A stretch of 64,000 nucleotides of DNA, from contig CP181398.1 in NCBI GenBank assembly GCA_047946875.1, positions 271,154-335,153 on the forward strand, in the 5' to 3' direction. The notes beneath the pieces were generated by a model. That model was given only the letters and a program-made list of their open reading frames with translations, was not told where the DNA came from and did not search any database. Positions 2,116 through 44,467 of this stretch are shown here, one piece after another. The position numbers and the translations under genes are program-made. The DNA comes from Candidatus Kerfeldbacteria bacterium. Lineage in GTDB: Bacteria > Patescibacteriota > Patescibacteriia > UBA10025 > JAHIVO01. The number at the start of each line of letters is the position of its first letter. The stretch's first letter is position 1.

Positions 2116-2153
2116 AAGCTAACGTAAATTAAAATATGTAGTAAACGTTAGCT
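2116..2153 (+). promoter_or_regulatory. 10-bp perfect hairpin in the proS leader
   Basis: AAGCTAACGT...ACGTTAGCT lies 35 nt upstream of the proS ATG and is not followed by a T-run. Confidence 0.3.
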
Positions 2154-2187
2154 CTTTATAAAAATTAATTAATATATTATAGCTAGT

Positions 2188-3657: not shown

Positions 3658-3670
3658 TTAATTTACTTTA

Positions 3671-3712
3671 TTTATAAAACCACTAACAGTTTCATAAGTT
3701 GGTGGTTTTTTA
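3671..3712 (+). terminator. Rho-independent terminator after proS
   Basis: AAACCAC...GTGGTTT stem followed by TTTTTATTTT. Confidence 0.5.
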
Positions 3713-3769
3713 TTTTGACTTAGAATCTAAAATATGGTATTTTTCAGCTAACTTTACTAATTAAGTATT

Positions 3770-4843: not shown

Positions 4844-4845
4844 AT

Positions 4846-6925: not shown

Positions 6926-7088
6926 CTAGATTATGCAATTATATATAGTAAATATAGGCATCCTTGCCAATAGTTAGTTTTTTTGATAAGATATGTTATA
7001 AAAGAAATACAAGTTCTACTGAAATAAAGAGCCGGATTATAGTATAGCTCTTTAATAACCAAAAACCATTTATCGGAGGTATTATCAG

Positions 7089-12766: not shown

Positions 12767-12770
12767 TTAT

Positions 12771-18784: not shown

Positions 18785-19582
18785 ATGCCCAAGAAAAAAG
18801 TAAAAAAAATAAATAAACCAAAACTCAGTAAAACCAAGAAATTACGAATTGGGATTGCTGGTCTTACTTCCTGCGAAGGATGTTCTTTTGCTATTTTAGA
18901 TATGGGCATGGATTTTATTGAAGCAATTGACCATTTTGATTTGGGTGATTTTCATTTGATTATGGATGAGACTAAAGGGGATAAATATGACATCATGTTT
19001 ATAGATGGCGCTCCATTAACTAAAGAAAATGTTAAAACACTCAAAGAATTAAGACGACGTTCTAAATATTTAGTAGCTTTAGGAGCTTGTGCTTGTAATG
19101 GTGTAATTCCAAATATTAAAAACTATATTGATAAAAAAAAGGCAGTAAAATATGTTTATCCAAAAGTCCATAAGTCAGTTTATAATCCAAATATTTTACC
19201 AGTTAAAAGATTTGTAAAAGTTGATTGTTCTATTCAAGGATGTCCTATAGAAGCGAAAGATTTTGTCACAGTAATAAATAGTTTGCGGGAGGGGATGGAT
19301 CCAAAATTGTTGGAAAATCCTGTTTGTTACGAATGTCAGATGAATGGAAACGAATGCTTGTTACAAAAAGGAGAACCGTGTTTAGGACCAGTAATACAAG
19401 GCGGTTGTAATGCTGTTTGTCTAAATTCTAAATTTGCTTGCAAAGGTTGTCGTGGAGTGATACCAGGTTATGATACAAAATCTTTAGAAAAAGAATTATT
19501 AAAAAAACATTCCAAAAAAGAGATCGAAAGTATTTTACAAATTTTTGGGATTCAAGAAGATTGGTATAAAGCACAAAAATAA
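18785..19582 (+). CDS. [NiFe]-hydrogenase small (delta) subunit
   Basis: GLTSCEGCSFAILD proximal-cluster motif and a C-terminal Cys-rich medial/distal cluster region. Confidence 0.8.
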   Translation: MPKKKVKKINKPKLSKTKKLRIGIAGLTSCEGCSFAILDMGMDFIEAIDHFDLGDFHLIMDETKGDKYDIMFIDGAPLTKENVKTLKELRRRSKYLVALGACACNGVIPNIKNYIDKKKAVKYVYPKVHKSVYNPNILPVKRFVKVDCSIQGCPIEAKDFVTVINSLREGMDPKLLENPVCYECQMNGNECLLQKGEPCLGPVIQGGCNAVCLNSKFACKGCRGVIPGYDTKSLEKELLKKHSKKEIESILQIFGIQEDWYKAQK

Positions 19583-19583
19583 T

Positions 19584-19874
19584 ATGGAGAGTATTGACGT
19601 TCTAGGTTATGTAGCAGGAATATTGGTGGTAATATCACTGTTGCCACAAACTATTAAAAGTTGGAAAACCAAGTCAACTCAAGATCTGTCATTGTGGAGA
19701 TATATAATATATGTTGTTGGTTTAATAATTTGGATTATCTATGCTATTAAAATAGATAATGGTCCGGTAGCTGTAATGAATGGACTAGGCTTAATACTAG
19801 CTATATCAATACTATATCTAAAATTAAAATACGGAATAAAAGATAAATATGAAGGTAAAAATCCAAATAATTAG
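19584..19874 (+). CDS. SemiSWEET/PQ-loop sugar transporter (start moved to internal ATG 19584)
   Basis: Three TM helices with LLPQTIKSW PQ motif, 96 aa. The track ORF start at 19545 lies inside the previous gene. Confidence 0.55.
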   Translation: MESIDVLGYVAGILVVISLLPQTIKSWKTKSTQDLSLWRYIIYVVGLIIWIIYAIKIDNGPVAVMNGLGLILAISILYLKLKYGIKDKYEGKNPNN

Positions 19875-20820
19875 GAAATTAATGGAGAGTAAGTTGGTAA
19901 AGATAGGTATTATCGCAAAAGAAGCGAAAATTATTGCTGATGAGTATTTACAGGGAGAGATAAAAGGGAAAGGCTCTCATGGTATTTTCCCGTTTATCAG
20001 TACATTCAAAAAATTACAAAGCAGAAAACGAGGTAAATTTAAGGTCACAAAAAATAGGCCAGCTTATGCTTATATTCAAGGCAATAAAGATGTTGGACAG
20101 ATTGTAGCAGATTATTCTATTAATGTGGCTATTAAAAAAGCAAAAAAGCAAGGTATTGCTATGGTGGGTGGTAGGAATATTCAGGCATTTTTGCGGCCTG
20201 CTACATACGCTGAGATAGCAGCAAAAAAAGGAATGATAGGGTTATGTTTTAATTTTGGTGGTGGACCATTGATGGCTCCAACAGGCGCTAGAGAAGCTAT
20301 ATTATCAACAAATCCTATAGGGATCGGAATTCCTTATAAGCCAAATCCATTTTTAATAGATATGGCTACTTCAAATAGAGCTTTTTATAATGTTAGGATG
20401 GCCAGGGAATTGGGAAAGAAAATTGATAAGAGTTGGGGGATTGATAAATTTGGCAAACCTACAACAGATCCAAATAAATTAGTTGCGGTACTACCGTTTG
20501 GAGGTTATAAAGGTTATATTTTAGCAGCTGCCTTGGAAATATTAACAGGACCATTAGTACGAAATAAGGTGGGTAAAAGTTCTAACAAATTACGTGGATT
20601 TTTATTTATAGTTATTAATCCTTTAGTCTTTACAACGAAGAAGGAATTTGAAAAGGATGTGAAAAAACTAATTAAAGATATAAAAACAGCAAAAAGAATT
20701 AAAGGAGTAAAAGAGGTTTTGATACCAGGTGAGCGATCCTTTAAAATAGAGAAGTTAAATTTAAAAAGAGGTTATTTAGAAATTGATAAACGAATTATTC
20801 AAACACTTGAAAATTTATGA
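19849..20820 (+). CDS. Ldh_2 family malate/L-sulfolactate dehydrogenase (ComC/Mdh-like)
   Basis: GKPTTDP, LPFGGYKGY and LIPGE motifs line up with the ComC family. Confidence 0.65.
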   Translation: MKVKIQIIRKLMESKLVKIGIIAKEAKIIADEYLQGEIKGKGSHGIFPFISTFKKLQSRKRGKFKVTKNRPAYAYIQGNKDVGQIVADYSINVAIKKAKKQGIAMVGGRNIQAFLRPATYAEIAAKKGMIGLCFNFGGGPLMAPTGAREAILSTNPIGIGIPYKPNPFLIDMATSNRAFYNVRMARELGKKIDKSWGIDKFGKPTTDPNKLVAVLPFGGYKGYILAAALEILTGPLVRNKVGKSSNKLRGFLFIVINPLVFTTKKEFEKDVKKLIKDIKTAKRIKGVKEVLIPGERSFKIEKLNLKRGYLEIDKRIIQTLENL

Positions 20821-22070
20821 AGGTAAAAATAAAACACATTACAAAAATTGAAGGACATGCTACTTTTTGGGGAGCACTTAAAAAAGGAGATATTGCTGAA
20901 GCTAAGTATCATACTTTGGAAGGAGCTAGGTTAATAGAAGGTGTGTTGATAGGACGTAATTATAATGATGCTCCGTTAATTACATCTAGGATTTGTGGTG
21001 TTTGTCCAGTAGTTCATAATTTAACATCGATCCAAGGTATTGAACGAGCAATGAAAGTAAAAGTTTCTGATAGTACTATCTTACTCAGAAAAATGATGAT
21101 GTATGGTCAGTTTATTCAAAGTCATTCTCTTCATGCATATTTCATGACTATTCCAGATTTCTATGGAAAAGATTCAGCCCTTGATTTATTAAAGGAAGCA
21201 CCAAAACAATCAGGTATGGCATTGAAAATTCGAGGATTTGGTAATTTATTGACTGAAGTCATTGGTGGACGAACTGTGCATCCAGTCAATTCACAAATTG
21301 GTGGATTTCTTAAACTTCCACCAAAAAGAAGAATGCAGGAACTAATGGATAGTTCTCAGGAGATTTTACAAGAAGCAGTTGAATTAGCCCATTTCATTTC
21401 ACATCTTAAGTTTATTGACTTTCATCGTAAGACCGAATATGTATCACTTTATAATAAAAAAGAATATGCGATTTATGATGGTGATGTAAGGTCAACTGAT
21501 GGTTTGGTTATTTCTCCTCAGAAATTTCATGATGAGGTAGATGAGATACAACAAAGTTGGGATTTAATTAAACGTACCAAATTTAAAGGTAGAATTTATT
21601 GGGCTGGGGCATTATCTAGGATTAATAATAACTGGCAACAATTAAATCCTATTGCTAAGCAGGCTTTTAAACATAATAAGTTTAAGATACCAATAGATAA
21701 TTCTTTTTATAATGTTCTAGCTCAAGCTATAGAAATAATTCACTGTATGGAAGAAACACAGAAGTTATTAAAGAAATATTTAGCTTTAAAAAATATTAAA
21801 CCAATTGTTAAATATAAAGTTAGAGCTGGTAAAGGGGTTGGCTGTATTGAAGCACCACGTGGGATTTTATTCCATTACTATGAAACTGATAAATATGGTT
21901 GTTTGAAGAATGTAAATATTATTACACCAACAGCTCAGTTTATGAATAATCTTGAAGCAGATTTAGCACAATATATCGGACAAAATAAAAAATTTGGTAA
22001 CAAAGAGTATCGTCAGTTAGCTATGATGATCAGAGCTTATGATCCTTGTATGACTTGCGCAACTCATTAA
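20817..22070 (+). CDS. [NiFe]-hydrogenase large (alpha) subunit
   Basis: N-terminal RICGVC and C-terminal DPCMTCATH Ni-binding motifs. Confidence 0.85.
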   Translation: MKVKIKHITKIEGHATFWGALKKGDIAEAKYHTLEGARLIEGVLIGRNYNDAPLITSRICGVCPVVHNLTSIQGIERAMKVKVSDSTILLRKMMMYGQFIQSHSLHAYFMTIPDFYGKDSALDLLKEAPKQSGMALKIRGFGNLLTEVIGGRTVHPVNSQIGGFLKLPPKRRMQELMDSSQEILQEAVELAHFISHLKFIDFHRKTEYVSLYNKKEYAIYDGDVRSTDGLVISPQKFHDEVDEIQQSWDLIKRTKFKGRIYWAGALSRINNNWQQLNPIAKQAFKHNKFKIPIDNSFYNVLAQAIEIIHCMEETQKLLKKYLALKNIKPIVKYKVRAGKGVGCIEAPRGILFHYYETDKYGCLKNVNIITPTAQFMNNLEADLAQYIGQNKKFGNKEYRQLAMMIRAYDPCMTCATH

Positions 22071-24878: not shown

Positions 24879-26435
24879 ATGGTCAAGAATAAGAAGAGCC
24901 CTCTTGTTTTAGTCATCCTAGATGGTTGGGGTATAAATAAAGAAAAAAAGGGAAATGCTATAATTCTTGGGGCTACTCCGAACTTTGATAATTATTGGAA
25001 AAATTATCCTAAGTCACTATTGCAAGCCTCTGGAAAAAATGTAGGGCTACCTTCTACGCAAGTTGGTAACTCAGAAGCAGGTCATATGAATATTGGAGCA
25101 GGAAGAGTTATAGAACAGGATTCTGTAATTGTTTCTCAATCTATTAACGAAGGAACTTTTTTTCGTAATCCTGCATTTTTGTCAACGATTAATCACGCTA
25201 AGGCAAATAATTCTACCGTTCATTTAGTAGGTTTATTGACATCTGAACAGTCAGCACATGCAGATCCGGATCATATTATAGCTTTAATAACTTTATTAAG
25301 ATTAAAAAAAATAAAAAAGGTTACTTTACATTTATTTACAGATGGTAGAGATTCCTATCAGTATTTAGCTGTGAAGCTACTGGCAAGGATAAAAAAGATT
25401 TTTACTAATGGTGAGAAGATTGGCTCTATAATCGGTCGGTTTTATGCAATGGATAGAATCAAAGAATGGAGGAGAACAGAGAAAGCTTACGATACGTTGA
25501 CAATAAGCACAGGCCGAGAAGCAAGCAGTCCACAAGCCGCTGTCTTACAAGCATATAATAGAAAAGAAACTGACGAATATATTTCTCCAACCGTGATTAA
25601 AGAAAATGGCAAAAAGATAAAAAGAATCAGTAATAACGATGCGGTTATATTCTTTAATTTAAGATCAGATCGTGTTAGACAGTTAAGCAAAGCTTTTGTT
25701 CAAAAAGATTTTAAAGGTTTCGTAAGAAAAAAAATAGTTAAGAATCTTTCTTTCGTTACTTTGACTGATTTTGGGCCAGATTTACCGGGAGTTTTGTCTG
25801 CTTTTCCATCAAGGATACTGCCAAATACATTGCCTCATATTTTGAAAGATTTTAAGCAACTATATATTGCTGAAACAGAAAAATATGCACATATATCATA
25901 CTTTCTAAATGGTGGACATGACCATGCCGTGGCAGGAGAAGATCGCTTTATCATTAAATCTCCTCATGTAGTGTCGTATAAAGAAAAGCCTGAGATGAGT
26001 GCTGATAAAGTCACAAAACATATTCTTCAATCTATTAATAATGATAAATATGATTTTATATTAGTAAATTATGCAAATCCAGACATGGTTGGACATACAG
26101 GTGATTTGAAAGCCGGTATAAAAGCAGTTAAAAAAATCGATAAATGTATAGGTGATCTAAAGAAGGCAATAGATAAAAAAAATGGTACAATGATAATTAG
26201 TGCAGATCATGGCAATATTGAAGAGTTAATAGATGTTAGGACTGGACAAGTTGATACTTCTCATACTAATAATCCTGTCCCTTTTATTATTATTAATAAA
26301 GATATAAATAAAAAAACTAAAGTAAAAAATGGAGTACTAGCGGATATTGCACCAACTATATTACATATGATGAATATTAAAAAACCGAAAGAAATGAAAA
26401 ATAAAATTTTATGCGAATACCAAATAAACCAGTAA
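24879..26435 (+). CDS. gpmI: 2,3-bisphosphoglycerate-independent phosphoglycerate mutase, copy 1
   Basis: LVILDGWGI, GNSEAGH catalytic Ser context and ADHGN. Confidence 0.85.
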   Translation: MVKNKKSPLVLVILDGWGINKEKKGNAIILGATPNFDNYWKNYPKSLLQASGKNVGLPSTQVGNSEAGHMNIGAGRVIEQDSVIVSQSINEGTFFRNPAFLSTINHAKANNSTVHLVGLLTSEQSAHADPDHIIALITLLRLKKIKKVTLHLFTDGRDSYQYLAVKLLARIKKIFTNGEKIGSIIGRFYAMDRIKEWRRTEKAYDTLTISTGREASSPQAAVLQAYNRKETDEYISPTVIKENGKKIKRISNNDAVIFFNLRSDRVRQLSKAFVQKDFKGFVRKKIVKNLSFVTLTDFGPDLPGVLSAFPSRILPNTLPHILKDFKQLYIAETEKYAHISYFLNGGHDHAVAGEDRFIIKSPHVVSYKEKPEMSADKVTKHILQSINNDKYDFILVNYANPDMVGHTGDLKAGIKAVKKIDKCIGDLKKAIDKKNGTMIISADHGNIEELIDVRTGQVDTSHTNNPVPFIIINKDINKKTKVKNGVLADIAPTILHMMNIKKPKEMKNKILCEYQINQ

Positions 26436-28000
26436 TGTTAATAATATTGGATGGCTGGGGAATTGCTCCTAAAGCGCCAAGTAATCCTATTGGTACTGCT
26501 GAGACGCCAAATATTGATTCTCTTATAGATAATTATCCAACTTTAGCAGTACAAGCTTCTGGTGAAGCCGTAGGTTTGCCATGGGGTGAAATGGGAAACT
26601 CAGAGGTTGGGCATTTGAATTTGGGTGCTGGTCGTATTATGTATCAAAATTTACCAAGAATTTCAAAATCAATAGCTGAAAAGAGTTTTTATAAAAAAGA
26701 AGCATTTTTACATGCAGCAAAGCATGTGAAGAAAAATAAATCAGCAATACATCTTATGGGATTGGTGGGAGTTGGGAGTATTCATGCTTCAGTCGACCAT
26801 TTATATGGTTTAATGGAATTTTGTGCACAACAAAAAATTAGTAAAGTTTATTTACATTTATTTTTGGATGGAAGAGACTCTCCAAAAGATAGTGCTGCAG
26901 CAGTCGTTGGAAAAATTATTGATAAAATTGAAGAAATTAAAGTTGGTGAAATTGCTTCATTGACTGGGAGGTTTTTTGCTATGGATAGAGATAATAGATG
27001 GAAAAGAGAAGAGAAGACTTATAATTCTATAGTAAATGGAGATGCAGAATATTATGATGAGGATCCTATTTCTGCCATTAAGGCTTCATATAAACGCAAA
27101 GTATATGATGAAGAATTTGAGCCAACAATAATTGGCACAAAGGAAAAACCAGTTGGTTTAGTACAGGATAAAGACGCAGTAATATTTTTTAACTTTAGAC
27201 CAGATCGAGCTAGACAGCTTACTAGCGCTTTTACTTTGCCTGGGTTTGATAAGTTTGATCGGCCTGAATATATGAAAAATTTATTCTTTGCCACTATGAC
27301 ACAATATGACAAAGATTTGCCTGTAGAGATAGCTTTTCTTCCAGAAAATATTGAATATCCAATAGCTAGAGTTATTTCAGAATCAAAATTAAAACAATTA
27401 CATATTTCAGAAACTGAAAAGTATGCCCATGTAACATATTTTTTTAATGGTGGTCAAGAAAAACCTTTTACAGGACAAGAGAATGTTATAATTCCTTCTC
27501 CAGCAGTACCATCCTATGACAAACAGCCAGAGATGAGTGCCTCGAAATTAACTGATAGATTAATAAAAGAAATTAAATCAGAAAAATTTGATTTTATTGT
27601 CGCAAATTATGCAAATGCAGATATGGTTGGGCATACAGGTAATATCAAAGCAACTATTAAAGGTATAGAAGCTGTAGATGAATGTATCGGCAGAGTGACC
27701 AAAGAAGTGCTAGAAAAAGATGGACTCGTATTTATTACAGCTGATCATGGTAATGCAGAAGAGATGACAAACATGCAGACGGGAGCTATGGATAAAGAAC
27801 ATAGTGTTAATCCAGTACCAGTTATAGCTGTGGGAAATAAATGGAAGGGGAATACACCTTTTAAAGATATAATAGTAGATCATGATTTAAGTATGTTACA
27901 ACCAACGGGAATTTTGTCAGATATTCCAGTAACAATATTAATACATATGGGATTGAAACCGGCTGTTGGTATGACCGGTAATGATTTATTAGATTTTTAA
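26411..28000 (+). CDS. gpmI: 2,3-bisphosphoglycerate-independent phosphoglycerate mutase, diverged tandem paralog
   Basis: LIILDGWGI, GNSEVGH and ADHGN. About 35-40% identical to copy 1 by eye. Confidence 0.85.
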   Translation: MRIPNKPVMLIILDGWGIAPKAPSNPIGTAETPNIDSLIDNYPTLAVQASGEAVGLPWGEMGNSEVGHLNLGAGRIMYQNLPRISKSIAEKSFYKKEAFLHAAKHVKKNKSAIHLMGLVGVGSIHASVDHLYGLMEFCAQQKISKVYLHLFLDGRDSPKDSAAAVVGKIIDKIEEIKVGEIASLTGRFFAMDRDNRWKREEKTYNSIVNGDAEYYDEDPISAIKASYKRKVYDEEFEPTIIGTKEKPVGLVQDKDAVIFFNFRPDRARQLTSAFTLPGFDKFDRPEYMKNLFFATMTQYDKDLPVEIAFLPENIEYPIARVISESKLKQLHISETEKYAHVTYFFNGGQEKPFTGQENVIIPSPAVPSYDKQPEMSASKLTDRLIKEIKSEKFDFIVANYANADMVGHTGNIKATIKGIEAVDECIGRVTKEVLEKDGLVFITADHGNAEEMTNMQTGAMDKEHSVNPVPVIAVGNKWKGNTPFKDIIVDHDLSMLQPTGILSDIPVTILIHMGLKPAVGMTGNDLLDF

Positions 28001-34300: not shown

Positions 34301-34732
34301 CTATTTTTTATTTGCTAAATATGATTCAAATGCAGGGTATAGGTTTTCTATTATATCATATTTTTTGTAATCCTTTGGATTAATCCACTCATATTTATAA
34401 TGTTCTGAGCTAAGAGTTACCGCATTAGTTTTTGCTTCGCAATTAAAGAATACTCTGACAATATGCCAAGTTTCTTTTTTTGTTTCTGTAAAAGCTTCAT
34501 TAGCAAAAAATGATTCTTTTATATCTATACCTAAACCTACTTCTTCTCTTACTTCTCTGGTTAATGATTGATGGAGTGTTTCTACAGGGTTCATTCTGCC
34601 GCCTGGTATATCATATTTATCTACTTGTGTGTTTGAAGTATGGTCACCTGATTCTTTAACAATAATAATCTTACCTTTATATGTAATAAAAGCTTTGGTA
34701 GCTACGAAAAGTTCTAATTTTTTATCAAGCAT
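34301..34732 (-). CDS. NUDIX hydrolase
   Basis: Nudix box GGRMNPVETLHQSLTREVREEVGL. Confidence 0.75.
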   Translation of the reverse strand: MLDKKLELFVATKAFITYKGKIIIVKESGDHTSNTQVDKYDIPGGRMNPVETLHQSLTREVREEVGLGIDIKESFFANEAFTETKKETWHIVRVFFNCEAKTNAVTLSSEHYKYEWINPKDYKKYDIIENLYPAFESYLANKK

Positions 34733-35057
34733 ATATTATTGCTCCTATTACTACTAAGGCATCCATAATGATTAAACCTGTATACATTAATATTAATGGT
34801 TTTTCTTTATGAACTATGCCATAAATTAGCCAGATAATTGCTAGCACTGTAAAACCTATCCAAGAAGGAATAGATACGCCCGCTGCTTCTTTATTGATCC
34901 AAACTTCTATTGCTTGAGGAATCACTAAGATTGGTCCTGCTATTCCAGCCGCGTATATTACCTTATCTAGAAATTTGGTAAATTTTCTCTCACTAGGAAA
35001 ATTTTCTAGACGTGGTAAGTGAAATCTTTTTCTTTGATGTAAATGAAATATTGACAT
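34725..35057 (-). CDS. SemiSWEET/PQ-loop-like small transporter
   Basis: Three TM helices with LVIPQAIEVW PQ motif and a basic N-terminal extension. Confidence 0.45.
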   Translation of the reverse strand: MSIFHLHQRKRFHLPRLENFPSERKFTKFLDKVIYAAGIAGPILVIPQAIEVWINKEAAGVSIPSWIGFTVLAIIWLIYGIVHKEKPLILMYTGLIIMDALVVIGAIIYA

Positions 35058-35058
35058 A

Positions 35059-35991
35059 TTAGTTACTATTACTTATTTCTTTAAGTATATCATGGATTTG
35101 TTTTAAGGAGGTAACGCTGACCAGTTTAGATCTATAATTGGTGGCATTAGGGATACCTTTTACGTAAGCGAGTAGATGTTTTCTAATTTCTAGCATGCCA
35201 ACTTTGTCACTTTTTGTTTCGAATAAAAACTGAGCATGCTTATTTATTAGTTGAATTTTCTCAGAGAAAGATTTTGGTTGTTGTTCAGTAAAAACCCATG
35301 GATTTCCGATAGCAGCTCGACCAATCATAAAACCGTCTAAATTTTTCAATTTTTTATTGCCATCTTCTAGGGAATAAATATCGCCATTGCCAATAACGGG
35401 GATAGCTAGCTGTTTTTTTAGTTCATAAATAGGGTTAAAATCTGCTGTATCTGAAAATCCCTGTTCATAAGTACGACCATGAATAGTTAAAAGTTGAGCG
35501 CCAGCATTTTCAATACCTTTACCAAATTTAATAAGATCGTTAGAGCTGTCCCAGCCTAATCTTGTTTTAACTGAAACCGGCAGGGAGGTTGTTTTAGCTA
35601 AAGTTTCTACTAACTTGAATGCAAGGTCGGGTTTTTTACGTAGGGCTACACCATGCTCAGATTTAACTACTTTTTTGGCAGGGCAGCCCATATTAATATC
35701 TATACCAGCGAAACCTTGTTCTTCACAGTATTTAGCAGCTGTGATGAAGGTCTTAGTATTTTTTCCAAAGATTTGGGCAATGATTGGATATTCTGATTGA
35801 TCAAATTCAAACTTTTGTTGTAATTTTTTTGCACCGTGATGTAGTCCATCTGCTGAAGCAAATTCTGTAAATACAATAATATCTTTGTTAACTTCTTTAC
35901 AAACTCGTCGAAAAGCGCTGTCAGTATATCCGTCCATCGGTGCCAGGGCTACTATTGGTTTTTTTATATTTTTCCAAAAATCTTTATTCAT
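35059..35991 (-). CDS. dus: tRNA-dihydrouridine synthase
   Basis: LAPMDGYTDSAFR N-terminus and TIM-barrel Dus motifs. Confidence 0.85.
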   Translation of the reverse strand: MNKDFWKNIKKPIVALAPMDGYTDSAFRRVCKEVNKDIIVFTEFASADGLHHGAKKLQQKFEFDQSEYPIIAQIFGKNTKTFITAAKYCEEQGFAGIDINMGCPAKKVVKSEHGVALRKKPDLAFKLVETLAKTTSLPVSVKTRLGWDSSNDLIKFGKGIENAGAQLLTIHGRTYEQGFSDTADFNPIYELKKQLAIPVIGNGDIYSLEDGNKKLKNLDGFMIGRAAIGNPWVFTEQQPKSFSEKIQLINKHAQFLFETKSDKVGMLEIRKHLLAYVKGIPNATNYRSKLVSVTSLKQIHDILKEISNSN

Positions 35992-36003: not shown

Positions 36004-36951
36004 TTACCTTTTGATATTAAATAAATTTATTAATACTTGTTCAGCAATGTTATTTATTGGGTTTTCAGCAGATCTGCTTTGCATATATATTCCGGGATTA
36101 TCATTTACTTCAGTTATTGCGCCACCAGTTTTTTTATATGATTTGGTAATATCAGTAGTCATAAAATCAAATCCAGCAAAAACCATATCTAGCTCCTTCA
36201 TAGCTTTTAGACAAGCTTTAATGTAATCAGGGTGAACTGTTTTGATATCAAGATTATAGGTAGTGCCTCCTAGGTGTGCATTAGCTCTGTCTCGTAAGTA
36301 AATCTTTTCATCGTCTTTTGGTATTGAATTAATAGTGAGTTGTTGAGCTTTCAATTTATGAAGGACTTCTTGTCCAATAGTAATTGGGTGGGGTAATTTT
36401 CTATTTTTTAATTTAATTAATTCTTTGATTGTTTTTTTACCATCACCAGTTATTTTAGCTGGGAAGCGTTTAGTGACTGCTAGGACTTTATTTTTGCATA
36501 TTAATATCCTATGATCGTAACCAGAATAAAACTTCTCTATTAAAATAAATTTATAATATTTCTTTATCTTTTTAATAGCATTTTTAAGTTGAGATACATT
36601 TTGTATATCAGCAATAATACCCTCACCACCATAACCTTTTATTGGTTTAATGATAACTGGAAATCCTATTTTTTTTGCGAATTTGATGATATCTGAGTTT
36701 GGTTCGTTATAAAAACCTTTATGTGGGAAAACTGGAACATCTCTACTTTTTAAAAATAAATTAGTATGATTTTTTCGATCGGTCATTGCATGAGCTATAG
36801 AATCATTGACATCAGGAGTTGCTTGGTAAAATCTTATTGATTTACTTTTATAAAATATTTCATAGATATAAGAATTGGTAATAGTATACTTTAAGTCAAG
36901 TTTTTTGGCTGCTTTTGTATATATTTTTAGATAATCTCTTGTATAATCCAT
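36004..36951 (-). CDS. ATP-grasp ligase resembling the cyanophycin synthetase N-terminal (G) domain, paralog B
   Basis: RANAHLGGTT...VHP...GFD...TDIT...ITEVNDNPG matches the CphA ATP-grasp signature. No Mur-ligase domain. Confidence 0.55.
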   Translation of the reverse strand: MDYTRDYLKIYTKAAKKLDLKYTITNSYIYEIFYKSKSIRFYQATPDVNDSIAHAMTDRKNHTNLFLKSRDVPVFPHKGFYNEPNSDIIKFAKKIGFPVIIKPIKGYGGEGIIADIQNVSQLKNAIKKIKKYYKFILIEKFYSGYDHRILICKNKVLAVTKRFPAKITGDGKKTIKELIKLKNRKLPHPITIGQEVLHKLKAQQLTINSIPKDDEKIYLRDRANAHLGGTTYNLDIKTVHPDYIKACLKAMKELDMVFAGFDFMTTDITKSYKKTGGAITEVNDNPGIYMQSRSAENPINNIAEQVLINLFNIKR

Positions 36952-36953
36952 TA

Positions 36954-37892
36954 TTATATTTTTAAAAGATTAATAAGAACTTGTTCACCAATATCTTTAA
37001 TTGGATTGACTGTCGCTGTCATATGTATATCGGTAGCGGGATTATCGTTAATCTCGGTAACACCTGCACCTGTTTTTTTGTACGATTTTGTAATATCTGT
37101 GGTCATAAGATCTAATCCTGCTAATTTGAGATTAAGAAGTTTAACTGCTTTCATACTTATTTTAATATTATCTGGATGTACTGTTTTAATATTAACGTTT
37201 TCGGTTGTGCCACCAAGGGCTGCATTTGCTCTAAATCTTAAATATAAGGTTTTATTGAGTGGCAAAATAGATTTCAAAGTTAATTTTTTTGATTTCAGCA
37301 TATCTTTTACTTCTTGATCTATTTTTACCGGTTTTGGGAGATGTTTATTTTTTTTATTGATAAGTTTCAAGATTGAGTTGACACCATCACCTATGATGGA
37401 GGCTGGAAATCTTTTGGTGACTGCTAATAATTTATCGTTAACTATTAAAATACGATAATCCCAGCCAGGATAGTATTTCTCAATAATAATATTTTTATCA
37501 ATTTTTGTTGCAGTAATTATCGATTTTTTTAATTCCGATTGATTAATAATATTTACAGTTATGCCCATACCACAAAGACCAGCCACAGGCTTTACAACTA
37601 CTGGAAATTTTAGTGATTTTGTGTATTTTAATATTTCAGAAAATTTAGCGTTGTTAAATTTTTTTTGTTCAAAAACCGGGACGTTATTTTTTTTTAAGAA
37701 TTCATTTGTCATGTTTTTGTATTTTGTGATAATGTGTGCAACTGCGTTATTTTTGCTACACATTGCAAAATAAAATCTGACTTTATCTTTTTTATAAAAT
37801 ATATCAATCAAAAAAGCATTATGAAGTTTTATTTTTAATCCGAGTTTTCTAGCTGCCTGGGAATAGAATTTAGCGTAAAAGTAAGGTTTCAT
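36954..37892 (-). CDS. ATP-grasp ligase resembling the cyanophycin synthetase N-terminal (G) domain, paralog A
   Basis: RANAALGGTT...VHP...GLD...TDIT...VTEINDNPA. About 45% identical to paralog B by eye. Confidence 0.55.
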   Translation of the reverse strand: MKPYFYAKFYSQAARKLGLKIKLHNAFLIDIFYKKDKVRFYFAMCSKNNAVAHIITKYKNMTNEFLKKNNVPVFEQKKFNNAKFSEILKYTKSLKFPVVVKPVAGLCGMGITVNIINQSELKKSIITATKIDKNIIIEKYYPGWDYRILIVNDKLLAVTKRFPASIIGDGVNSILKLINKKNKHLPKPVKIDQEVKDMLKSKKLTLKSILPLNKTLYLRFRANAALGGTTENVNIKTVHPDNIKISMKAVKLLNLKLAGLDLMTTDITKSYKKTGAGVTEINDNPATDIHMTATVNPIKDIGEQVLINLLKI

Positions 37893-38737
37893 TATTTGTT
37901 TTGTTTATTGTATAGGTATTCAATCATTTGTGCCGCTATGTCAGTTCCTGTAATTTGTTGGGCTCGAGGAAAGAAGCAAGGATAATTTACTTCTGTGAGA
38001 TAATGTTTATTATTATGTATTAGGATATCTACTCCGCCAAATTCTAGATTTAATAATTGAACTGCTTTAATAGCGGTATCTTTAATATCTTTTGGAAATT
38101 TCTTAGTAATAACTTTGGGATTTCCTACATTTGATCTAAAGTCATCTTTTGGTGCTTGATATTCTATACTATCTATCACTTTATCTCCTAAGACCACAAG
38201 TCTGGCAGAAGAAGTAACAGGAATATATTCTCTGATCATTACTTTAGCCTCATCATTTCTAAGATAGTCTAGAACAGAGAATAGAGATTCTATTGAATCA
38301 ACTTTCATAACTCCGACTCCATGGCTTTTACCAGATACTTTAACTATATAAGGAGGACCATTAAGGTCTTGAATTTGGGATTCAATATTTTTTTTGTCCT
38401 TTGTAATGATAAATATAGTTTTTGGGGTAGGTACTCCATTCTCTATATAAATTTTTTCATCAGCTGCAGCATTCATACCACCATGGAGAGCTTTACGATA
38501 ATCCGTATAAAATGTAGCTACTTTTTCATTGAGTAATTCTATTTCTATTTGTCTGGCATAGGGGGTAGTATTAGCTCGATAAAGCGCATCTTTTGTGGTT
38601 GGTTTTTTAAAATTTTTTTCAGGGTAAGTTCTAATATCTACATAAATTAGATCCACCTCGTTATTTTTTTTACAGGCATTTACAAAAGTATCATTGATTT
38701 GTGAATTGGATTCACTGGATATTAAATAAAATTTCAT
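37892..38737 (-). CDS. RimK-family ATP-grasp (alpha-L-glutamate ligase-like)
   Basis: DFRSN, GVDIL and TGTDIAAQMI motifs as in RimK. Confidence 0.6.
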   Translation of the reverse strand: MKFYLISSESNSQINDTFVNACKKNNEVDLIYVDIRTYPEKNFKKPTTKDALYRANTTPYARQIEIELLNEKVATFYTDYRKALHGGMNAAADEKIYIENGVPTPKTIFIITKDKKNIESQIQDLNGPPYIVKVSGKSHGVGVMKVDSIESLFSVLDYLRNDEAKVMIREYIPVTSSARLVVLGDKVIDSIEYQAPKDDFRSNVGNPKVITKKFPKDIKDTAIKAVQLLNLEFGGVDILIHNNKHYLTEVNYPCFFPRAQQITGTDIAAQMIEYLYNKQNK

Positions 38738-39111
38738 AATTTGATATTTATGTTAGTAAAAGTCTAAATATTAGTTATATTATACTAAAAATCAGCCAAA
38801 AATCAAGTTTAGTAATATTTTGCTTAAATTTATTATAACGCCGTATATCAAGCGGAAAGCTTAAGTGTAGATGAATTATAGACTGAGTGTAGAGGGGATT
38901 ATGGGGTGAATATTATTTGATTTTAAACTTTGTAATTCTTTTCATGTACTTATTATTAATCTTTTTAACTAGAATAAATCTTATTTATATCTACATATTT
39001 ATACCGTTTTTAAAGCAAAATTATAGAAATAAGATAAATTATAAGTTTCCTATTGACAAGTTAAAAGATATAGTTTAAACTTATATCAGTTTATTATTAA
39101 TATAAATAATT

Positions 39112-39876
39112 ATGGAAGACACAAATTTAGACCAAAAAATAAGTGGAAAGAGGGAGCGTAGTACGGCTTATCCAGCTATTTCTCTAGAAGACGCTATAAC
39201 TTATAGCGAAAAGTTGATTTTAGCTTATCCTAGGCATGATTTTGATAGAGAATCAGCTGTTAAGGCAATGGGCTTTAATTCAATTAGTGGTGCTTCTGCT
39301 CCAAAAGTTGCTGCATTAGTTCATTATGGACTTTTAGAGAGAGGGAAAGGAAGTACTTATAAAAATACTGATCTCGCTGAACGTATTTGTAATTATGAAG
39401 AGGAGCAAGAGAAAAATGAAGCAATTCGTGAAGCTGTGATGCGACCAAAATTATTTAATTCATTAATAAATGATTATACTAATCGTGCTATTCCCGTTAC
39501 ATTAAATAACGTTCTTATTCGCCAATACAAGATTAGTAGTAAGGTATCCGATAATGCCGTCCAAACATTCAAAGATTCTGTTGAGTTTGCTGGTATATAT
39601 CAAAATGGAGTACTTAATGATTCAGCTGGAGAGTTAAAGGGTCAAAATATGTCAAATGTACAAGCAGAGCCTGAAAAGAAACCTTCTATTTCAGGCCTTT
39701 ATAGTGTACCTTTACCAAGTGGTGCAGTCGTATCTTACCCTTCAGACATTGCTTTCTATTTACAGACAAATGAAGATTACACAAAAGCTCTCGAGTCTTT
39801 AGAAAAAGTAGTGCGGGCTGCACTTATTAAAAAGAATGAGGAAATACAACCAAATGGAGATGTTGCCACAGAATAA
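39112..39876 (+). CDS. Hypothetical protein (possible winged-helix N-terminus)
   Basis: ORF only. Preceded by a TTGACA-17-TAAACT promoter-like pair at 39053-39081. Confidence 0.4.
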   Translation: MEDTNLDQKISGKRERSTAYPAISLEDAITYSEKLILAYPRHDFDRESAVKAMGFNSISGASAPKVAALVHYGLLERGKGSTYKNTDLAERICNYEEEQEKNEAIREAVMRPKLFNSLINDYTNRAIPVTLNNVLIRQYKISSKVSDNAVQTFKDSVEFAGIYQNGVLNDSAGELKGQNMSNVQAEPEKKPSISGLYSVPLPSGAVVSYPSDIAFYLQTNEDYTKALESLEKVVRAALIKKNEEIQPNGDVATE

Positions 39877-40786
39877 CTGGAAAAAAATATTAGTATATAT
39901 AAAAACAGCTGGTGAGGATGGTTGTATTGATCATAGTCAAGTTAAAGACGATAATTATCAGTTTTGGGAAGATATTGGAGTGTTTAATCACTCTGCTTCT
40001 GGTGAATTGACGGAGGCAGGTAGAGCCGTATTTGAAGCGTTGTATATTAGATGTGATGGTGAAGAAGTAAATATTTTACGCCAACTTTTATTATCTTATC
40101 CTCCCACAATTGCTGTTCAGCAATATTTGTGGGGTGTCACTAATGTTACTGTTGAACAAGTGCTTACCGTACTTAAAACAACAAATTTTTGGTTTTATGA
40201 TTCTAGAGAGCCTCTTACGCATTTTTTGGACTTACTTAATTATGTGAGCATTGTTAATTATAAGAAAAAAATACGAAAGGTTAAAATATTGATTTCTCCT
40301 GACACTCTTTATGTACCAAAGAATGTTTTCATTGATCCAACAAGGCCATTTTCAAATATTGTTTGGGTGAAACGAATTCTTGGTGAATGTGAACAGAGTA
40401 TATGTTGGTTAGATAAGCATTTTCAAAAAGAAGCGCTTGAGTGGTTGTGGGCGATTTCTGATGCTAATAAAATTAATGAAATTCGTATTCTTTCTCTAGA
40501 TTTGGGAGATGCAAATTTAAGTAGTGGAGCAAAGAAGGAGTATAGGAGGTTTAAAAAGGAGATGAGTAATAAGGGTATTAATGTTAAGTGGGCGACAATT
40601 GAAAGCCATGACATAAAAGATGCTCACGACCGCTGGATAATTGGTGCAAATGAATATTTACGAAATGTCCCTAATGTAAATGCTATTTCTTCAGGACAAC
40701 GATCTGAAATGAATTATTCTGAAAATTATGACAAAGCGTCATCTGCATTTACTGGTTATTGGAGGAAGGCAACGGAGATTAACTAA
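39836..40786 (+). CDS. Hypothetical protein, overlapping the upstream gene
   Basis: ORF only. 41-nt overlap suggests translational coupling. No recognised motif. Confidence 0.4.
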   Translation: MRKYNQMEMLPQNNWKKILVYIKTAGEDGCIDHSQVKDDNYQFWEDIGVFNHSASGELTEAGRAVFEALYIRCDGEEVNILRQLLLSYPPTIAVQQYLWGVTNVTVEQVLTVLKTTNFWFYDSREPLTHFLDLLNYVSIVNYKKKIRKVKILISPDTLYVPKNVFIDPTRPFSNIVWVKRILGECEQSICWLDKHFQKEALEWLWAISDANKINEIRILSLDLGDANLSSGAKKEYRRFKKEMSNKGINVKWATIESHDIKDAHDRWIIGANEYLRNVPNVNAISSGQRSEMNYSENYDKASSAFTGYWRKATEIN

Positions 40787-40992: not shown

Positions 40993-42687
40993 ATGATAAA
41001 AAAGTGGCAAATAGCAAAAAAAATATCAAAAGAGTTTCAAAATGAGTTTCCTGAAGTAAACCCAATTATTTTACAACTTTTGTACAATAGAGGTCTACAA
41101 ACACAAGAAGAAATTGATGAATTTTTGAACCCTGATTATGGTCAAGATATCCATGATCCTTTTTTATTTAGAGATATGAAAAAGGCGGTTAAAAGGATTA
41201 TGCTAGCTATAGAAAAGAAACAAAAGATAACAGTGCATGGTGATTATGATGCAGATGGTGTGAGCGCTACCGTTGTAATAGTAACAACATTGAAGGCTTT
41301 GGGAGCTAAGGTAGATGTTTATATTCCGCATCGTGTATCAGAAGGGTATGGTCTAAATATTAATACTGTTAATACCCTAAATGAAAAAGAGACTAATTTG
41401 ATAATTACGGTAGATTGTGGCATCTCAAATCATGAAGAGGTTGAGCTGGTTAACAAATTAGGAATGGATATTATAATTACTGATCACCATAAGGAGCCAC
41501 CCGTACTTCCTAAGTCTTTAGCGTTGATAAATCCTCATGTAAAAGGAGAAAAATACCCATTTGAAGAACTGGCAGGAGTAGGAGTTGCTTTTAAATTGGT
41601 TCAAGCATTAGTAAAAGAAGATGATGGTAAGAAAATAAAAAGTGGTTTTGAGAAATGGTTATTAGATATTGTAGCGATCGGGACAATAGGTGATTGTGTG
41701 CCATTAGTTGGTGAAAACAGAACACTAGTTAAATATGGTCTGGTGGTTATAAGAAAATCAAAACGTCTTGGACTTAGAGAGATGGTAGAGTCAACAAGGT
41801 TTAATCTAGAAACTTTAGATACTATGAATGTAAGTTTTGGTATTGTTCCAAAAATTAATGCAGCTGGAAGGTTGGGTCATGCAAATACAGCTTATGAATT
41901 ATTGATGACAAAAAAAGATGCAGAGGCAAAAAAAATTGCTGATGATTTGGAAAATACTAATAAGGAAAGACAAAAAATAACCGAAAAAATATTAAGTGCG
42001 TCTAATGAACAGATTGGGGGAGTAGACAAGCAAAAAATACTTTTTGCAAGTGGTGAGGGATGGCAAGTTGGTGTTGTTGGATTGGTTGCTGGTAGGTTGT
42101 CAGATAAATACGCTCGTCCAGTAATTATTATGGGAGAAAGTAAGGATGAGATAGTTGGTTCGGGACGTTCTATACCTGGATTTGATATAACCAAAGCCTT
42201 GGTAGAATCAAGTGAATATTTGGAAAGATATGGTGGTCATGCAGCGGCTTGTGGCTTTACTTTGAAAAAAGGAATGAAAAATGAATTTATTAGTAGTATG
42301 GAGAAAATCGCAAATAGAGAAATTTCAGATGGAGGAGTAGTCAAAAGTTTTAAGATTGATAGGGAAGTAAAATTAAATGAAATAGATTGGGGTTTAGTCA
42401 ATAAGTTAGAGAATTTCGAACCATTCGGCCAGGGAAATAAACAACCAATGTTTGTTGCATATAATTTGACTGTAAAAGATTTCCAAAAAATTGGATCTAC
42501 TGGGAGACATTTGCGAATGATGGTAGAGCAGGAAGGAGTTGAAAGAAAAATTATAGCATTTGGTTTTGGTGAAACATTAGGAAATGAGTTAAGTATTGGA
42601 GAAAAAAAAGATATGCTTTTCGAGATTTCTATTAACGAATGGAATGGCAATAGGGAATTACAATTAAAGTTGGTTGATACAAATTAA
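40993..42687 (+). CDS. recJ: Single-stranded-DNA-specific exonuclease RecJ
   Basis: DHH motif HGDYDADG and DHHA1 GGHAAACGF. Confidence 0.85.
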   Translation: MIKKWQIAKKISKEFQNEFPEVNPIILQLLYNRGLQTQEEIDEFLNPDYGQDIHDPFLFRDMKKAVKRIMLAIEKKQKITVHGDYDADGVSATVVIVTTLKALGAKVDVYIPHRVSEGYGLNINTVNTLNEKETNLIITVDCGISNHEEVELVNKLGMDIIITDHHKEPPVLPKSLALINPHVKGEKYPFEELAGVGVAFKLVQALVKEDDGKKIKSGFEKWLLDIVAIGTIGDCVPLVGENRTLVKYGLVVIRKSKRLGLREMVESTRFNLETLDTMNVSFGIVPKINAAGRLGHANTAYELLMTKKDAEAKKIADDLENTNKERQKITEKILSASNEQIGGVDKQKILFASGEGWQVGVVGLVAGRLSDKYARPVIIMGESKDEIVGSGRSIPGFDITKALVESSEYLERYGGHAAACGFTLKKGMKNEFISSMEKIANREISDGGVVKSFKIDREVKLNEIDWGLVNKLENFEPFGQGNKQPMFVAYNLTVKDFQKIGSTGRHLRMMVEQEGVERKIIAFGFGETLGNELSIGEKKDMLFEISINEWNGNRELQLKLVDTN

Positions 42688-42699
42688 AAAAATGTAATT

Positions 42700-43365
42700 G
42701 TGAAAAATAAAAAAGAAATTGTAAATAAGTTAAAAAAAGAGTTAAATCATAATGGATACTTTACAAATTTTTTTAAGAAATATGGGTTATCTGACTTGTA
42801 TATTGGAAAAGGTACTCTTGGTCCAGAAATGAGTTGGGTTGCATATAATCTAACAAAATATATATTTCGAAATAAAACTTCTTTTAAAGACAAAAAAGTG
42901 TTGGATATGGGAGTTGGATCTGGAATGCAGACGGTTGCATCTGTATTAGCTGGTGCAAAAAAGGTATATTCTTTGGACATATCACCTGAGGCTATAAAAA
43001 GTATTAAACTTAATAAAAAGAAGTTTAAAATGAGTAATGTAAGAATAATGAAGAGTAATTTATTTCATAAGCTGACTAATGAGTTATTTGATATAATTAT
43101 TTTTAACCATCCATTTTTAGAAGGAACACCAAAAAATAGTTCTGACTTTGTTTATCTAACTGCCAAAAAAACATTAAACAATTTTTTTATTAATGCAAAA
43201 AAATTCTTAAGTAAAAATGGTATAATAATTATGCCATTTTCTTATTTAGGAGATCATGATCCCAGTTTTTATGCAAGGAAATATAATTACAGTATCAATA
43301 AAAAAATATTGTTTAAAAATAAATATGGAAAGCATGCCATTTTTTTTATTAAAAATAAGAAATGA
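42700..43365 (+). CDS. SAM-dependent methyltransferase (small-domain, NPPY-like NHPF)
   Basis: VLDMGVGSGMQ motif I and IIFNHPF motif IV. Confidence 0.5.
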   Translation: MKNKKEIVNKLKKELNHNGYFTNFFKKYGLSDLYIGKGTLGPEMSWVAYNLTKYIFRNKTSFKDKKVLDMGVGSGMQTVASVLAGAKKVYSLDISPEAIKSIKLNKKKFKMSNVRIMKSNLFHKLTNELFDIIIFNHPFLEGTPKNSSDFVYLTAKKTLNNFFINAKKFLSKNGIIIMPFSYLGDHDPSFYARKYNYSINKKILFKNKYGKHAIFFIKNKK

Positions 43366-44057
43366 AGAATTTTCTAGGAAATAAAATATTAATATTAACC
43401 GCACATCCTGATGATGAAAGTTATGTAGCAGCTGGGACAATATTTAAAAATTACCAGGGGGGCGGATCAACTATATTAGTTTGTGCTAGTTATGGAGAGA
43501 AAGGTACTTCTCATTTGAAAAAGAAGCTATCTGTAAATAAATTTAAAAAAGTTAGAAATCAGGAATTATTAAAAGCAGCTAAAGTATTACATATTGATCC
43601 GGTGCATATCATTGGAGTTCCTGATGGTCAGGTAGAAAGTAATAAAAAAAAGGTTTTTAATTATTTTCTTAAATATGCTGAAAAATGTAATCCACAAATA
43701 ATTATTAGTTTTAATAAAGATGGTATATCTGGTCATCATGACCATATTGCAGTGGGTGAGGTAGCAAAAAAAGTTGCTAACAAAATTAAAATACCGTTCG
43801 CTTCATTTTCATTACCACCCAAGGTTCAGAAAGAGGCGATTAAATATCTCAAAACTAGGAGAACAGCCGGTCATTATGCAAATAAAGTAAATTATATTAA
43901 ACCAAATTTTAGAATTAAGATAAATCGAAGCATTAAGAAAAAAGCCATTCAATGTCATCAGTCGCAGTTAGATGGTAATAAGGCTTTTACGGGATTCCCT
44001 GATTTTGCTGTAAAGGAATTATTGAAAGCTGAATATTTTATTATTAATAGTAAATAA
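43362..44057 (+). CDS. PIG-L/LmbE family N-acetylglucosaminyl deacetylase
   Basis: ILTAHPDDES motif. Confidence 0.7.
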   Translation: MKNFLGNKILILTAHPDDESYVAAGTIFKNYQGGGSTILVCASYGEKGTSHLKKKLSVNKFKKVRNQELLKAAKVLHIDPVHIIGVPDGQVESNKKKVFNYFLKYAEKCNPQIIISFNKDGISGHHDHIAVGEVAKKVANKIKIPFASFSLPPKVQKEAIKYLKTRRTAGHYANKVNYIKPNFRIKINRSIKKKAIQCHQSQLDGNKAFTGFPDFAVKELLKAEYFIINSK

Positions 44058-44059
44058 AT

Positions 44060-44467
44060 ATGTCTGGAACAATACTTGATATATATACTGATGGTGGATC
44101 AAGAGGTAATCCTGGACCTTCAGGTATTGGAGTAGTGATCAAAGAAAATAAGGAGAATATTGGTACATTTGCTAAATATATTGGTGAAGGAACTAATAAT
44201 CAAGCTGAATATGAAGCTGTTATATTAGGCTTAGAAGAAGCAAAAAAATTGAAAGCAGATGAATTGAATTTTTTTATTGATAGTGAATTAGTAGTAAATC
44301 AATTAAATAGAAAATATAAAGTTAAAGATCAGAAGCTAGGTTCATTGTTTGTAAAAGCATGGAATTTGATGACAAATTTTAAGTTGGTTACATATACTCA
44401 CATTCCTAGAGAAAAAAATACAGAAGCAGATGCTTTAGTTAATCAAGCGTTAGACGCACAAAAATGA
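44060..44467 (+). CDS. rnhA: Ribonuclease HI
   Basis: DGGSRGNPGPSG and catalytic DEDD context. Confidence 0.85.
   Translation: MSGTILDIYTDGGSRGNPGPSGIGVVIKENKENIGTFAKYIGEGTNNQAEYEAVILGLEEAKKLKADELNFFIDSELVVNQLNRKYKVKDQKLGSLFVKAWNLMTNFKLVTYTHIPREKNTEADALVNQALDAQK

Follow-up and report, generated by a model that had tools for sequence, protein, structure and literature searches.

We analysed 64,000 nucleotides of a Candidatus Kerfeldbacteria genome (contig CP181398.1, positions 271,154–335,153; this whole stretch is called the window). Its list of open reading frames (ORFs) contains three tightly packed minus-strand ATP-grasp genes, which encode a RimK-like protein and two paralogues, GA and GB, that resemble the G domain of cyanophycin synthetase (Table 1). 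Read directly from the sequence, the RimK-like and GA genes overlap by 1 nucleotide (TAATG) and GA and GB are separated by a 2-nucleotide spacer. A preliminary description of the locus had reported three consecutive minus-strand ATP-grasp ORFs with near-zero spacing, and the ORFs, the junctions and all of the motifs quoted there are borne out. The exact proteins have NCBI entries from a Candidatus Kerfeldbacteria metagenome-assembled genome (ACNFW9_01545 and ACNFW9_01540, 1.31-Mb contig), where they are named hypothetical or 'ATP-grasp domain-containing'. We tentatively propose that the three enzymes assemble a short peptide, and we conclude that this product is not cyanophycin.

GA and GB both match the cyanophycin synthetase model TIGR02068, GA with 4e-62 (210 bits) over model positions 176–470 of 862 and GB with 6e-60 (203 bits) over positions ~170–470 of 862, that is, over the G domain only, and both stay far below the equivalog cut-off of 850 bits. 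The best sequence match in the PDB is CphA1 in each case (7lgm, 5e-39 for GA; 7lgn, 1e-36 for GB), and the top matches as a whole are CphA1 (7lgm, 7lgn, 7wac, 7lg5) and CphA2 (7ta5, 8fxh) chains at 1e-29 to 5e-39. Weaker profile matches are obtained with the C-terminal ATP-grasp module of GshF and with Ngg. The two proteins are 52% identical to each other (BLASTP 7e-108) and carry RANA(A/H)LGGTT, VHP, TDIT and E(I/V)NDNP. These motifs had been described as a CphA signature; they are present, but they are common to the whole CphA/GshF/Ngg-type clade.

Neither GA nor GB has a Pfam match to Mur_ligase, and the CphA N domain is likewise absent. Residue ~1 of GA corresponds to residue ~161 of CphA1, and the G domain fills the whole protein. 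The earlier assignment of a RimK-like enzyme followed by two CphA-G-type paralogues without a Mur-ligase (M) domain is thus confirmed; the description was incomplete, as the N domain is missing too, and its placement of the ATP-grasp region in the C-terminal halves has to be widened to the whole protein. An AlphaFold2 model of GA built from 21 family sequences has a mean pLDDT (predicted local distance difference test) of 93 and superimposes on substrate-bound TeCphA1 (7wae) with a query-normalised TM-score (TMq) of 0.88–0.89 and a root-mean-square deviation of ~2.4 Å. This structure prediction, proposed earlier as a check, returns a CphA G-domain fold. In a Foldseek search with the model, CphA2 (7ta5) is the top match, with CphA and GshF ahead and RimK and Ddl far behind. 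GA and GB are thus predicted to be complete, bare G domains, with neither an N domain nor a MurE-like M domain.

To assess function, we mapped residues shown to be important in TeCphA1 (PMC9427784) onto the GA and GB alignments. The equivalents of CphA1 K220, K261, R309, D431, E450 and N452 (K59, K101, R147, D261, E280 and N282 in GA) are invariant in 21 of 21 family members, and both proteins should therefore be active ligases. The positions that separate CphA1 from GshF are E215, which binds the primer Arg side chain, the P-loop histidine H267, and R458, which binds the α-carboxylate of the incoming Asp (PMC9427784). All three are replaced, by I54, C107 and D288 in GA, by Ala, Gly and Tyr in GB, and by Ser or Ile, Gln and Asp in the single-copy relatives (G'). 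GA and GB should thus lack cyanophycin specificity, and the Asp-backbone or cyanophycin-like chemistry suggested in the preliminary description is not indicated. S396, which lines the Asp pocket in CphA1, is Ala in GA and His in GB; since these pocket residues differ between the paralogues, the two most likely use different substrates. R323 and N394 were considered as a sign of an Asp substrate and dropped, being conserved across the whole superfamily sample and therefore uninformative on specificity.

The RimK-like protein contains DFRSN, GVDIL and TGTDIAAQMI and matches the Pfam RimK family (PF08443) with 3.5e-22 (79 bits, cut-off 21). It scores 86 bits against the NCBIfam model rimK_fam, under the cut-off of 143, and 79 bits against the NCBIfam RimK equivalog (the S6 ligase), far under the cut-off of 331. 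Its best solved relatives are the RimK chains 7qys, 5zct and 4iwx (~1e-19), with which its K, RSN, D and E-x-N motifs align. We found 184 relatives at E ≤ 1e-5, and most of the best 120 are 40–50% identical to the query; they span Woesebacteria, Andersenbacteria, Doudnabacteria, Saccharibacteria, Gracilibacteria and Parcubacteria. In four sampled contexts within the CPR (candidate phyla radiation), the gene adjoins no other ligase; in locus L018, a further ATP-grasp gene lies ~5 kb downstream of it. Since the RimK-like gene is widespread and solitary in other CPR lineages, it is likely to have a separate role.

When 5.8 billion proteins were searched with a word index, only 39 relatives were obtained at E ≤ 1e-5, about 20 of which form the close family; of the three loci returned by a scan of contigs with very narrow peptide patterns, two were useful. 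At least five related contigs show synteny of the cluster. Its gene order is found again on independent contigs that come from different samples, with proteins that are 45–89% identical, and the arrangement is therefore not due to chance. The conserved neighbourhood comprises a divergent recJ, the RimK-like gene, a variable part, sometimes an FTR1 permease, and then Dus and NUDIX genes, which come after the ligases in all related loci. The variable part is GA and GB (window) or GA, GB and a GNAT-family N-acetyltransferase (L005, L006) in Type I, GNAT and G' in Type II (L001, L012), and a second RimK-like paralogue with G' in Type III (L003, L013); this second paralogue is 38% identical to the RimK-like protein of the window. 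Genes abut or overlap in all three types. The three-ligase unit that was described initially is thus not fixed, as relatives have RimK-like, GNAT and G' or two RimK-like genes and G' in its place. The sole PDB match of the cluster GNAT is RimI, and it is weak (E 0.004).

In a neighbour-joining tree of 250-odd G-like domains, 20 of 20 Kerfeldbacteria sequences fall into one clade with the topology (G',(GA,GB)), nested in a larger clade of stand-alone proteins of ~310–340 amino acids. Given this topology, GA and GB are the result of a recent lineage-specific duplication, in which GA retained the ancestral pocket residues and GB diverged.

Table 1. Features of the ATP-grasp locus and the genes that follow it, in coordinates of the window
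Feature	Position	Strand	Length	Basis
RimK-family ATP-grasp ligase, first gene of the unit	37892..38737	-	281 aa	
GA, stand-alone ATP-grasp ligase of the cyanophycin synthetase G-domain type	36954..37892	-	312 aa	
GB, GA paralogue with diverged substrate pocket	36004..36951	-	315 aa	
tRNA dihydrouridine synthase (Dus)	35059-35991	-		Pfam + NCBIfam
SemiSWEET-like membrane protein	34725-35057	-		Pfam + NCBIfam
NUDIX hydrolase	34301-34732	-		Pfam + NCBIfam
Promoter-like site TTGATT, 16 nucleotides, TATAAT	38779..38806	-		consensus scan, 10/12 matches

GB is followed after 12 nucleotides, again read directly, by the Dus gene; the Dus and SemiSWEET-like genes are 1 nucleotide apart, and the SemiSWEET-like and NUDIX genes overlap by 8. 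These three genes (34301..35991) are probably co-transcribed with the ligases and lie outside the ligase chemistry that we propose. Together with the ligases, they make up the sole sizeable minus-strand block, the rest of the window being mostly plus-strand. No more than a consensus match is claimed for the promoter-like site, which lies ~40 nucleotides upstream of the start codon of the RimK-like gene; the scan found 47 such sites against 37 expected, as AT-rich DNA yields many.

The spacer upstream of the RimK-like gene (38738–39111) has no minus-strand ORF of at least 20 amino acids, in agreement with the earlier remark that no precursor ORF is obvious in it. On the opposite strand, it carries a 53-amino-acid TTG-start ORF (38917–39078, plus strand) that is highly hydrophobic and of low complexity; it is probably spurious and is not conserved, the relatives being without that spacer. 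Between the RimK-like gene and recJ lie two overlapping plus-strand ORFs of 254 and 316 amino acids (39112–39876 and 39836–40786), for which Pfam, NCBIfam, PADLOC and PHROGs gave no significant match. In five related loci, the position of this pair is occupied by a spacer of merely 44–123 nucleotides, without a conserved small ORF, and the pair has the appearance of an insertion specific to this lineage. The Kerfeldbacteria clusters share no precursor or carrier gene.

To place the G-like proteins in a wider context, we searched 1.84 billion cluster representatives with GA using phmmer, which gave 8147 matches at E ≤ 1e-3 and 393 at E ≤ 1e-30. Among the best 188 G-like relatives, 84 are stand-alone proteins of up to 400 amino acids and 45 contain two or three fused tandem G-like modules; some of the latter add an acylphosphatase, LPG_synthase_C, two AMP-binding domains, or PGA_cap and a Mur-ligase. 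Five large proteins with two or three tandem modules and such fusions (P0040, P0043, P0045, P0053 and P0061) look like ATP-grasp 'megasynthases'; LPG_synthase_C is an aminoacyl-transferase-like domain. Paired G modules that act together thus seem to be a recurrent theme, and the fused proteins lend Rosetta-stone support to cooperation between two G modules. CphA1 dimerises through Gcore, with E215 supplied across the interface (PMC9427784), and by analogy a GA–GB heterodimer would be reasonable.

More distant stand-alone G-like genes are found on other CPR contigs. The nearest G-like proteins outside Kerfeldbacteria with known genomic context (P0020 and P0034) are encoded in L007 and L010. The L007 gene adjoins a 7TM protein, a RloC/RimB-like fusion (an ATPgrasp_ST ligase joined to a RimB-like retropepsin domain) and a RimK-like ligase in an Rlo-like cluster (3857–7878) just downstream of the NusG-L11-L1-L10-L12 genes. 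In L010, an Rlo-like cluster (2119–7062) comprises the G-like ligase, 7TM_transglut, ATPgrasp_ST and a MATCAP/DUF1704 carboxypeptidase. In L008 (4589–7020) and L020 (3661–6032), a stand-alone G-like gene for ~340 amino acids directly follows genes for Vut_1, a vitamin/queuosine-precursor transporter family, and a CofE-like member of the F420_ligase family. This trio may be an uptake-and-tailing module for cofactor retention; in L020 it adjoins dCMP deaminase, dihydrofolate reductase and thymidylate synthase genes. The gene order in L008 (MurJ, Vut_1, CofE-like, G-like, LepA, RecJ, RNase H) shares an old synteny with the window, where MurJ–LepA lie at 58304–61742 and RecJ to RNase H at 40993–44467. 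The common denominator of these CPR contigs is a G-like ligase paired with some type of glutamate ligase.

From these data, we suggest that the cluster directs the ribosome-independent, sequential ligation of a short Glu-containing hetero-oligopeptide that is N-acetylated where a GNAT is present. We hold this reading tentatively, its chance of being correct falling somewhat short of even. The RimK-like protein, GA and GB would act in sequence as ATP-dependent carboxylate–amine ligases, without a ribosome or template, each converting the terminal carboxylate of the growing chain into an acyl-phosphate and then coupling an incoming amino acid to it by its amino group. The RimK-like enzyme would most likely add glutamate, in one or several residues, like characterised members of its family, and GA and GB would each add one different further residue. 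The product would be short and probably acidic, either free or on a small carboxylate acceptor (an N-acetyl amino acid or the tail of a cofactor, for example), and in relatives with a linked GNAT it would be capped by N-acetylation. We infer the order of action, Glu as building block and the small-molecule acceptor; a physiological role as a compatible solute or in cofactor retention is our guess. Template-independent synthesis or C-terminal tailing, as put forward in the preliminary description, is still the best class of explanation, and it is the cyanophycin-like specificity that has to be abandoned.

The proposal is supported by the folds, the intact catalytic residues, the pocket differences between GA and GB and the conserved modular synteny. 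The characterised G domains of CphA1 and CphA2, the GshF C-terminal module and Ngg use an acyl-phosphate to form a non-ribosomal α-peptide bond on a small substrate (PMC9427784; PMC8070244), and we favour a small peptide because every characterised member of this clade does so. E215, H267 and R458 are replaced as they are in GshF, a single-addition ligase, and the differences between GA and GB at these positions and at S396 agree with the use of two different substrates. The clusters are modular in composition, in the manner of a short assembly line that gains steps or whose product is capped at the N-terminus. In the GNAT-bearing relatives, the combination of a GNAT with a CphA-type ATP-grasp enzyme matches the architecture of Ngg and thereby supports an N-acetyl peptide product, and the stand-alone G-like genes beside glutamate-ligase types in L007, L008 and L020 support a Glu-containing one. 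Consistent with this, neither the ORF list nor Pfam shows a peptidase, a carrier protein or a precursor ORF in the cluster.

Several points weigh against this proposal. Sequence searches found no cluster GNAT in the 64-kb window; a GNAT query of the protein database gave no match from the 1.31-Mb contig of this genome either, but known orthologues at 32–37% identity were also missed. Pfam scans of the window ORFs show no linked osmolyte-type exporter, amidotransferase or regulator. RimK-like orthologues are mostly lone genes in Patescibacteria, and their best-known relative modifies protein S6, hence the acceptor could be a protein. The specificity of the ligases is inferred throughout. Finally, tight packing is by itself weak evidence of shared function in compact CPR genomes: the Dus and NUDIX genes are unrelated to the ligases and yet lie equally close together.

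A protein acceptor is the alternative that we take most seriously, although we consider it unlikely: the RimK-like enzyme would glutamylate S6 or another protein, the G-like ligases would extend or cap the tail, and the GNAT would be of the Rim type. Among NCBIfam models and solved structures (including the RimK–RpsF complex family), the RimK-like protein is indeed nearest to true RimK, its gene is conserved on its own across CPR, often near translation or RNA genes, and the GNAT has its weak match to RimI, the bS18 N-acetyltransferase. In L010, moreover, the G-like gene is near an ATPgrasp_ST ligase and a MATCAP-type carboxypeptidase, a pairing typical of reversible protein tails. However, proteins are not known to be substrates of any characterised enzyme of the CphA/GshF/Ngg clade, the score of the RimK-like protein is far under the S6-ligase cut-off, the Kerfeldbacteria cluster lacks a RimB-like protease, and phmmer with an E. 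coli S6 query found no S6 in the window or in the other loci compared. A specific version, in which glutamates from the CPR-wide RimK-like enzyme and different capping residues from the Kerfeldbacteria-specific G ligases form a hetero-peptide 'tail code' on a protein C-terminus, most plausibly that of S6, is more doubtful still; here, lineage-specific variants (a duplicated G module, a GNAT or a second RimK) would make the tail more diverse. If true, the CphA/GshF clade would gain its first member that modifies proteins, and the tubulin tail code would have a bacterial counterpart.

That the ligases are independent and merely share a compact transcription unit, with a housekeeping RimK-like enzyme beside unrelated small-molecule ligases, would explain why the RimK-like gene is found alone elsewhere and why the Dus, SemiSWEET-like and NUDIX genes are packed as closely as the ligases. 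We regard this as improbable, since RimK-like and G-like genes stay adjacent across Kerfeldbacteria sub-lineages whose proteins are no more than ~45–50% identical while the intervening gene changes, and since they are separately adjacent in L007. Quite improbable, too, is a storage or structural poly-amino-acid (cyanophycin-like, poly-Asp, poly-Glu or an alternating copolymer), for which GA and GB would alternate as the G and M domains of CphA1 do, or iterate as CphA2 and RimK do. The G domain alone polymerises in CphA2, the top Foldseek match; RimK can make poly-α-Glu, as cited in PMC11957051; and argG/argH and proBAC-like genes in the window point to some Asp, Arg and Glu metabolism. On the other hand, the N domain, proposed to anchor cyanophycin (PMC9427784), is absent, the three residues for primer and Asp recognition are replaced, and relatives manage with one G-like gene and a capping GNAT. 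Moreover, no Pfam match (E ≤ 1e-6) to cyanophycinase, isoaspartyl dipeptidase or another polymer-degrading enzyme was obtained among the window ORFs, a handful of short ones being unscanned. A true cyanophycin synthetase was rejected on the domain content, the specificity residues and the 850-bit cut-off.

Maturation of a ribosomally synthesised and post-translationally modified peptide of the graspetide type, or a Ddl-type housekeeping role in peptidoglycan synthesis, is very improbable and in effect refuted. All that speaks for either is a set of superfamily-level model matches of about 19–46 bits against cut-offs of 230–495. For graspetide maturases, the scores are 19–28 bits against 230–475, and neither the spacer nor its 44–123-nucleotide counterparts offer a precursor: the former has no coding-strand ORF and the latter no conserved small one, so that the precursor-peptide model considered in the preliminary description is unlikely. 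For Ddl, GA and GB score 35–46 bits against 243–262, Ddl structures rank far below those of CphA and GshF, and the operon has Dus, SemiSWEET-like and NUDIX genes as partners instead of mur or ddl; a housekeeping family of this kind, which would have overturned the initial assignment, is therefore not what the searches return. A defence system was considered and rejected.

The superfamily and its mechanism are well known; the stand-alone G-domain clade and its pairing with RimK-like or CofE-like glutamate ligases in CPR are uncharacterised. A literature search on cyanophycin and ATP-grasp enzymes in Patescibacteria and on stand-alone G domains found nothing relevant, the amidoligase comparison of Iyer et al. 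(2009) lying outside that search. Stand-alone G-domain ligases constitute a sizeable family (the 393 representatives above) without a characterised member. Many of them are lone proteins of ~310–340 amino acids or modules fused in tandem, and mis-annotation as 'cyanophycin synthetase' is frequent. Conservation of an operon with two or three such ligases in a CPR genome of 1.3 Mb implies that the product is important to a minimal, probably host-dependent cell; it could be a compatible solute, or else a tail on a protein or on a cofactor that is thereby retained. Identification of this product would give the G clade its first function and correct its annotation, and would make available an ATP-grasp route to defined short peptides that is simple, genetically modular and of interest to biotechnology.

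Elsewhere, the window contains proB-, proC- and proA-like genes (glutamate 5-kinase with a PUA domain, pyrroline-5-carboxylate reductase and an aldehyde dehydrogenase) and argG/argH, at 3770–6925 and 11567–14099. For a CPR genome of 1.3 Mb, this capacity for amino-acid biosynthesis seems unusual. Genes for subunits of the NiFe-hydrogenase type (Fer4_22, NAD_binding_1/DHODB Fe-S, Oxidored_q6 small subunit and NiFeSe large subunit) are located at 14134–15977 and 18785–22070, with an Ldh_2 gene between the two groups; downstream of this set are genes for phosphoglycerate kinase, enolase and two tandem paralogues of cofactor-independent phosphoglycerate mutase (24879–28000).

Comparison with characterised systems shows how far GA and GB resemble each of them. 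The G domain of CphA1 (TeCphA1 7wac/7wae, SuCphA1 7lg5), comprising Gcore, Glid and G-omega, is matched by GA and GB over their full length, and both share with it the ATP/Mg and catalytic residues, the family-wide R323 and N394, and a presumed acyl-phosphate mechanism on the C-terminal α-carboxylate. Whereas CphA1 consists of N, G and MurE-like M domains (~870 amino acids) with one G domain that has E215, H267 and R458, the Kerfeldbacteria unit has two diverged G-only paralogues (312 and 315 amino acids) without those residues. CphA2 (7ta5, 8fxh/8fxi) uses only the G-domain active site, which indicates that a G module alone can suffice as a ligase or polymerase; however, CphA2 (~600–640 amino acids) has an N domain and, in truncated form, the M domain, and polymerises β-Asp-Arg dipeptides, whereas GA and GB are bare and lack the cyanophycin-binding residues.

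The GshF C-terminal module (3ln6, 3ln7) is the second-best family for GA and GB by profile (131 and 119 bits, positions ~474–752 of 756, far below the cut-off of 425) and by structure. GshF has Leu, Tyr/Phe and Met/Tyr at the E215, H267 and R458 positions (PMC9427784) and thus, like GA and GB, lacks the CphA1-type residues; it adds once to a short peptide. The module is fused to a GshA (glutamate–cysteine ligase) domain, whereas no such ligase is linked in the Kerfeldbacteria cluster. Ngg combines a GNAT with a CphA-type ATP-grasp domain and makes the N-acetyl dipeptide N-acetylglutaminylglutamine (PMC8070244). The ATP-grasp half of Ngg (TIGR03103, from the pathway for the osmolyte N-acetylglutaminylglutamine amide, NAGGN) is matched by GA and GB at ~1e-33, with 114 bits against a cut-off of 569, and related Kerfeldbacteria clusters hold a translationally coupled GNAT. 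This GNAT is a separate gene and is missing from the window, whereas that of Ngg is fused; the extra RimK-like ligase sets the Kerfeldbacteria unit apart from the NAGGN pathway, and the pathway partners AsnO amidotransferase and M42 peptidase had no match among the window ORFs scanned.

The RimK family comprises the S6–glutamate ligase RimK as well as LysX, MptN and CofF, of which MptN and CofF act on cofactors and LysX on a carrier protein. Glutamate is attached by members of this family to protein tails, cofactors or free Glu. The 281-amino-acid protein shares the RimK domain and motifs with them; it belongs to a divergent CPR-wide branch below both NCBIfam cut-offs, and the RimK partners RimA and RimB are not encoded beside it. 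For RimK itself, PMC11957051 cites both glutamylation of the S6 tail and synthesis of poly-α-Glu. Rlo/Rim-type clusters combine a 7TM inactive transglutaminase, ATP-grasp enzymes and a retropepsin-like protease (PMC11957051). The Kerfeldbacteria cluster is without the 7TM protein, the protease and the ATPgrasp_ST-type ligase of these systems, but G-like ligases do occur in them in L007 and L010, and through P0020 and P0034 the G-like ligases are thus linked to poly-acidic peptide metabolism.

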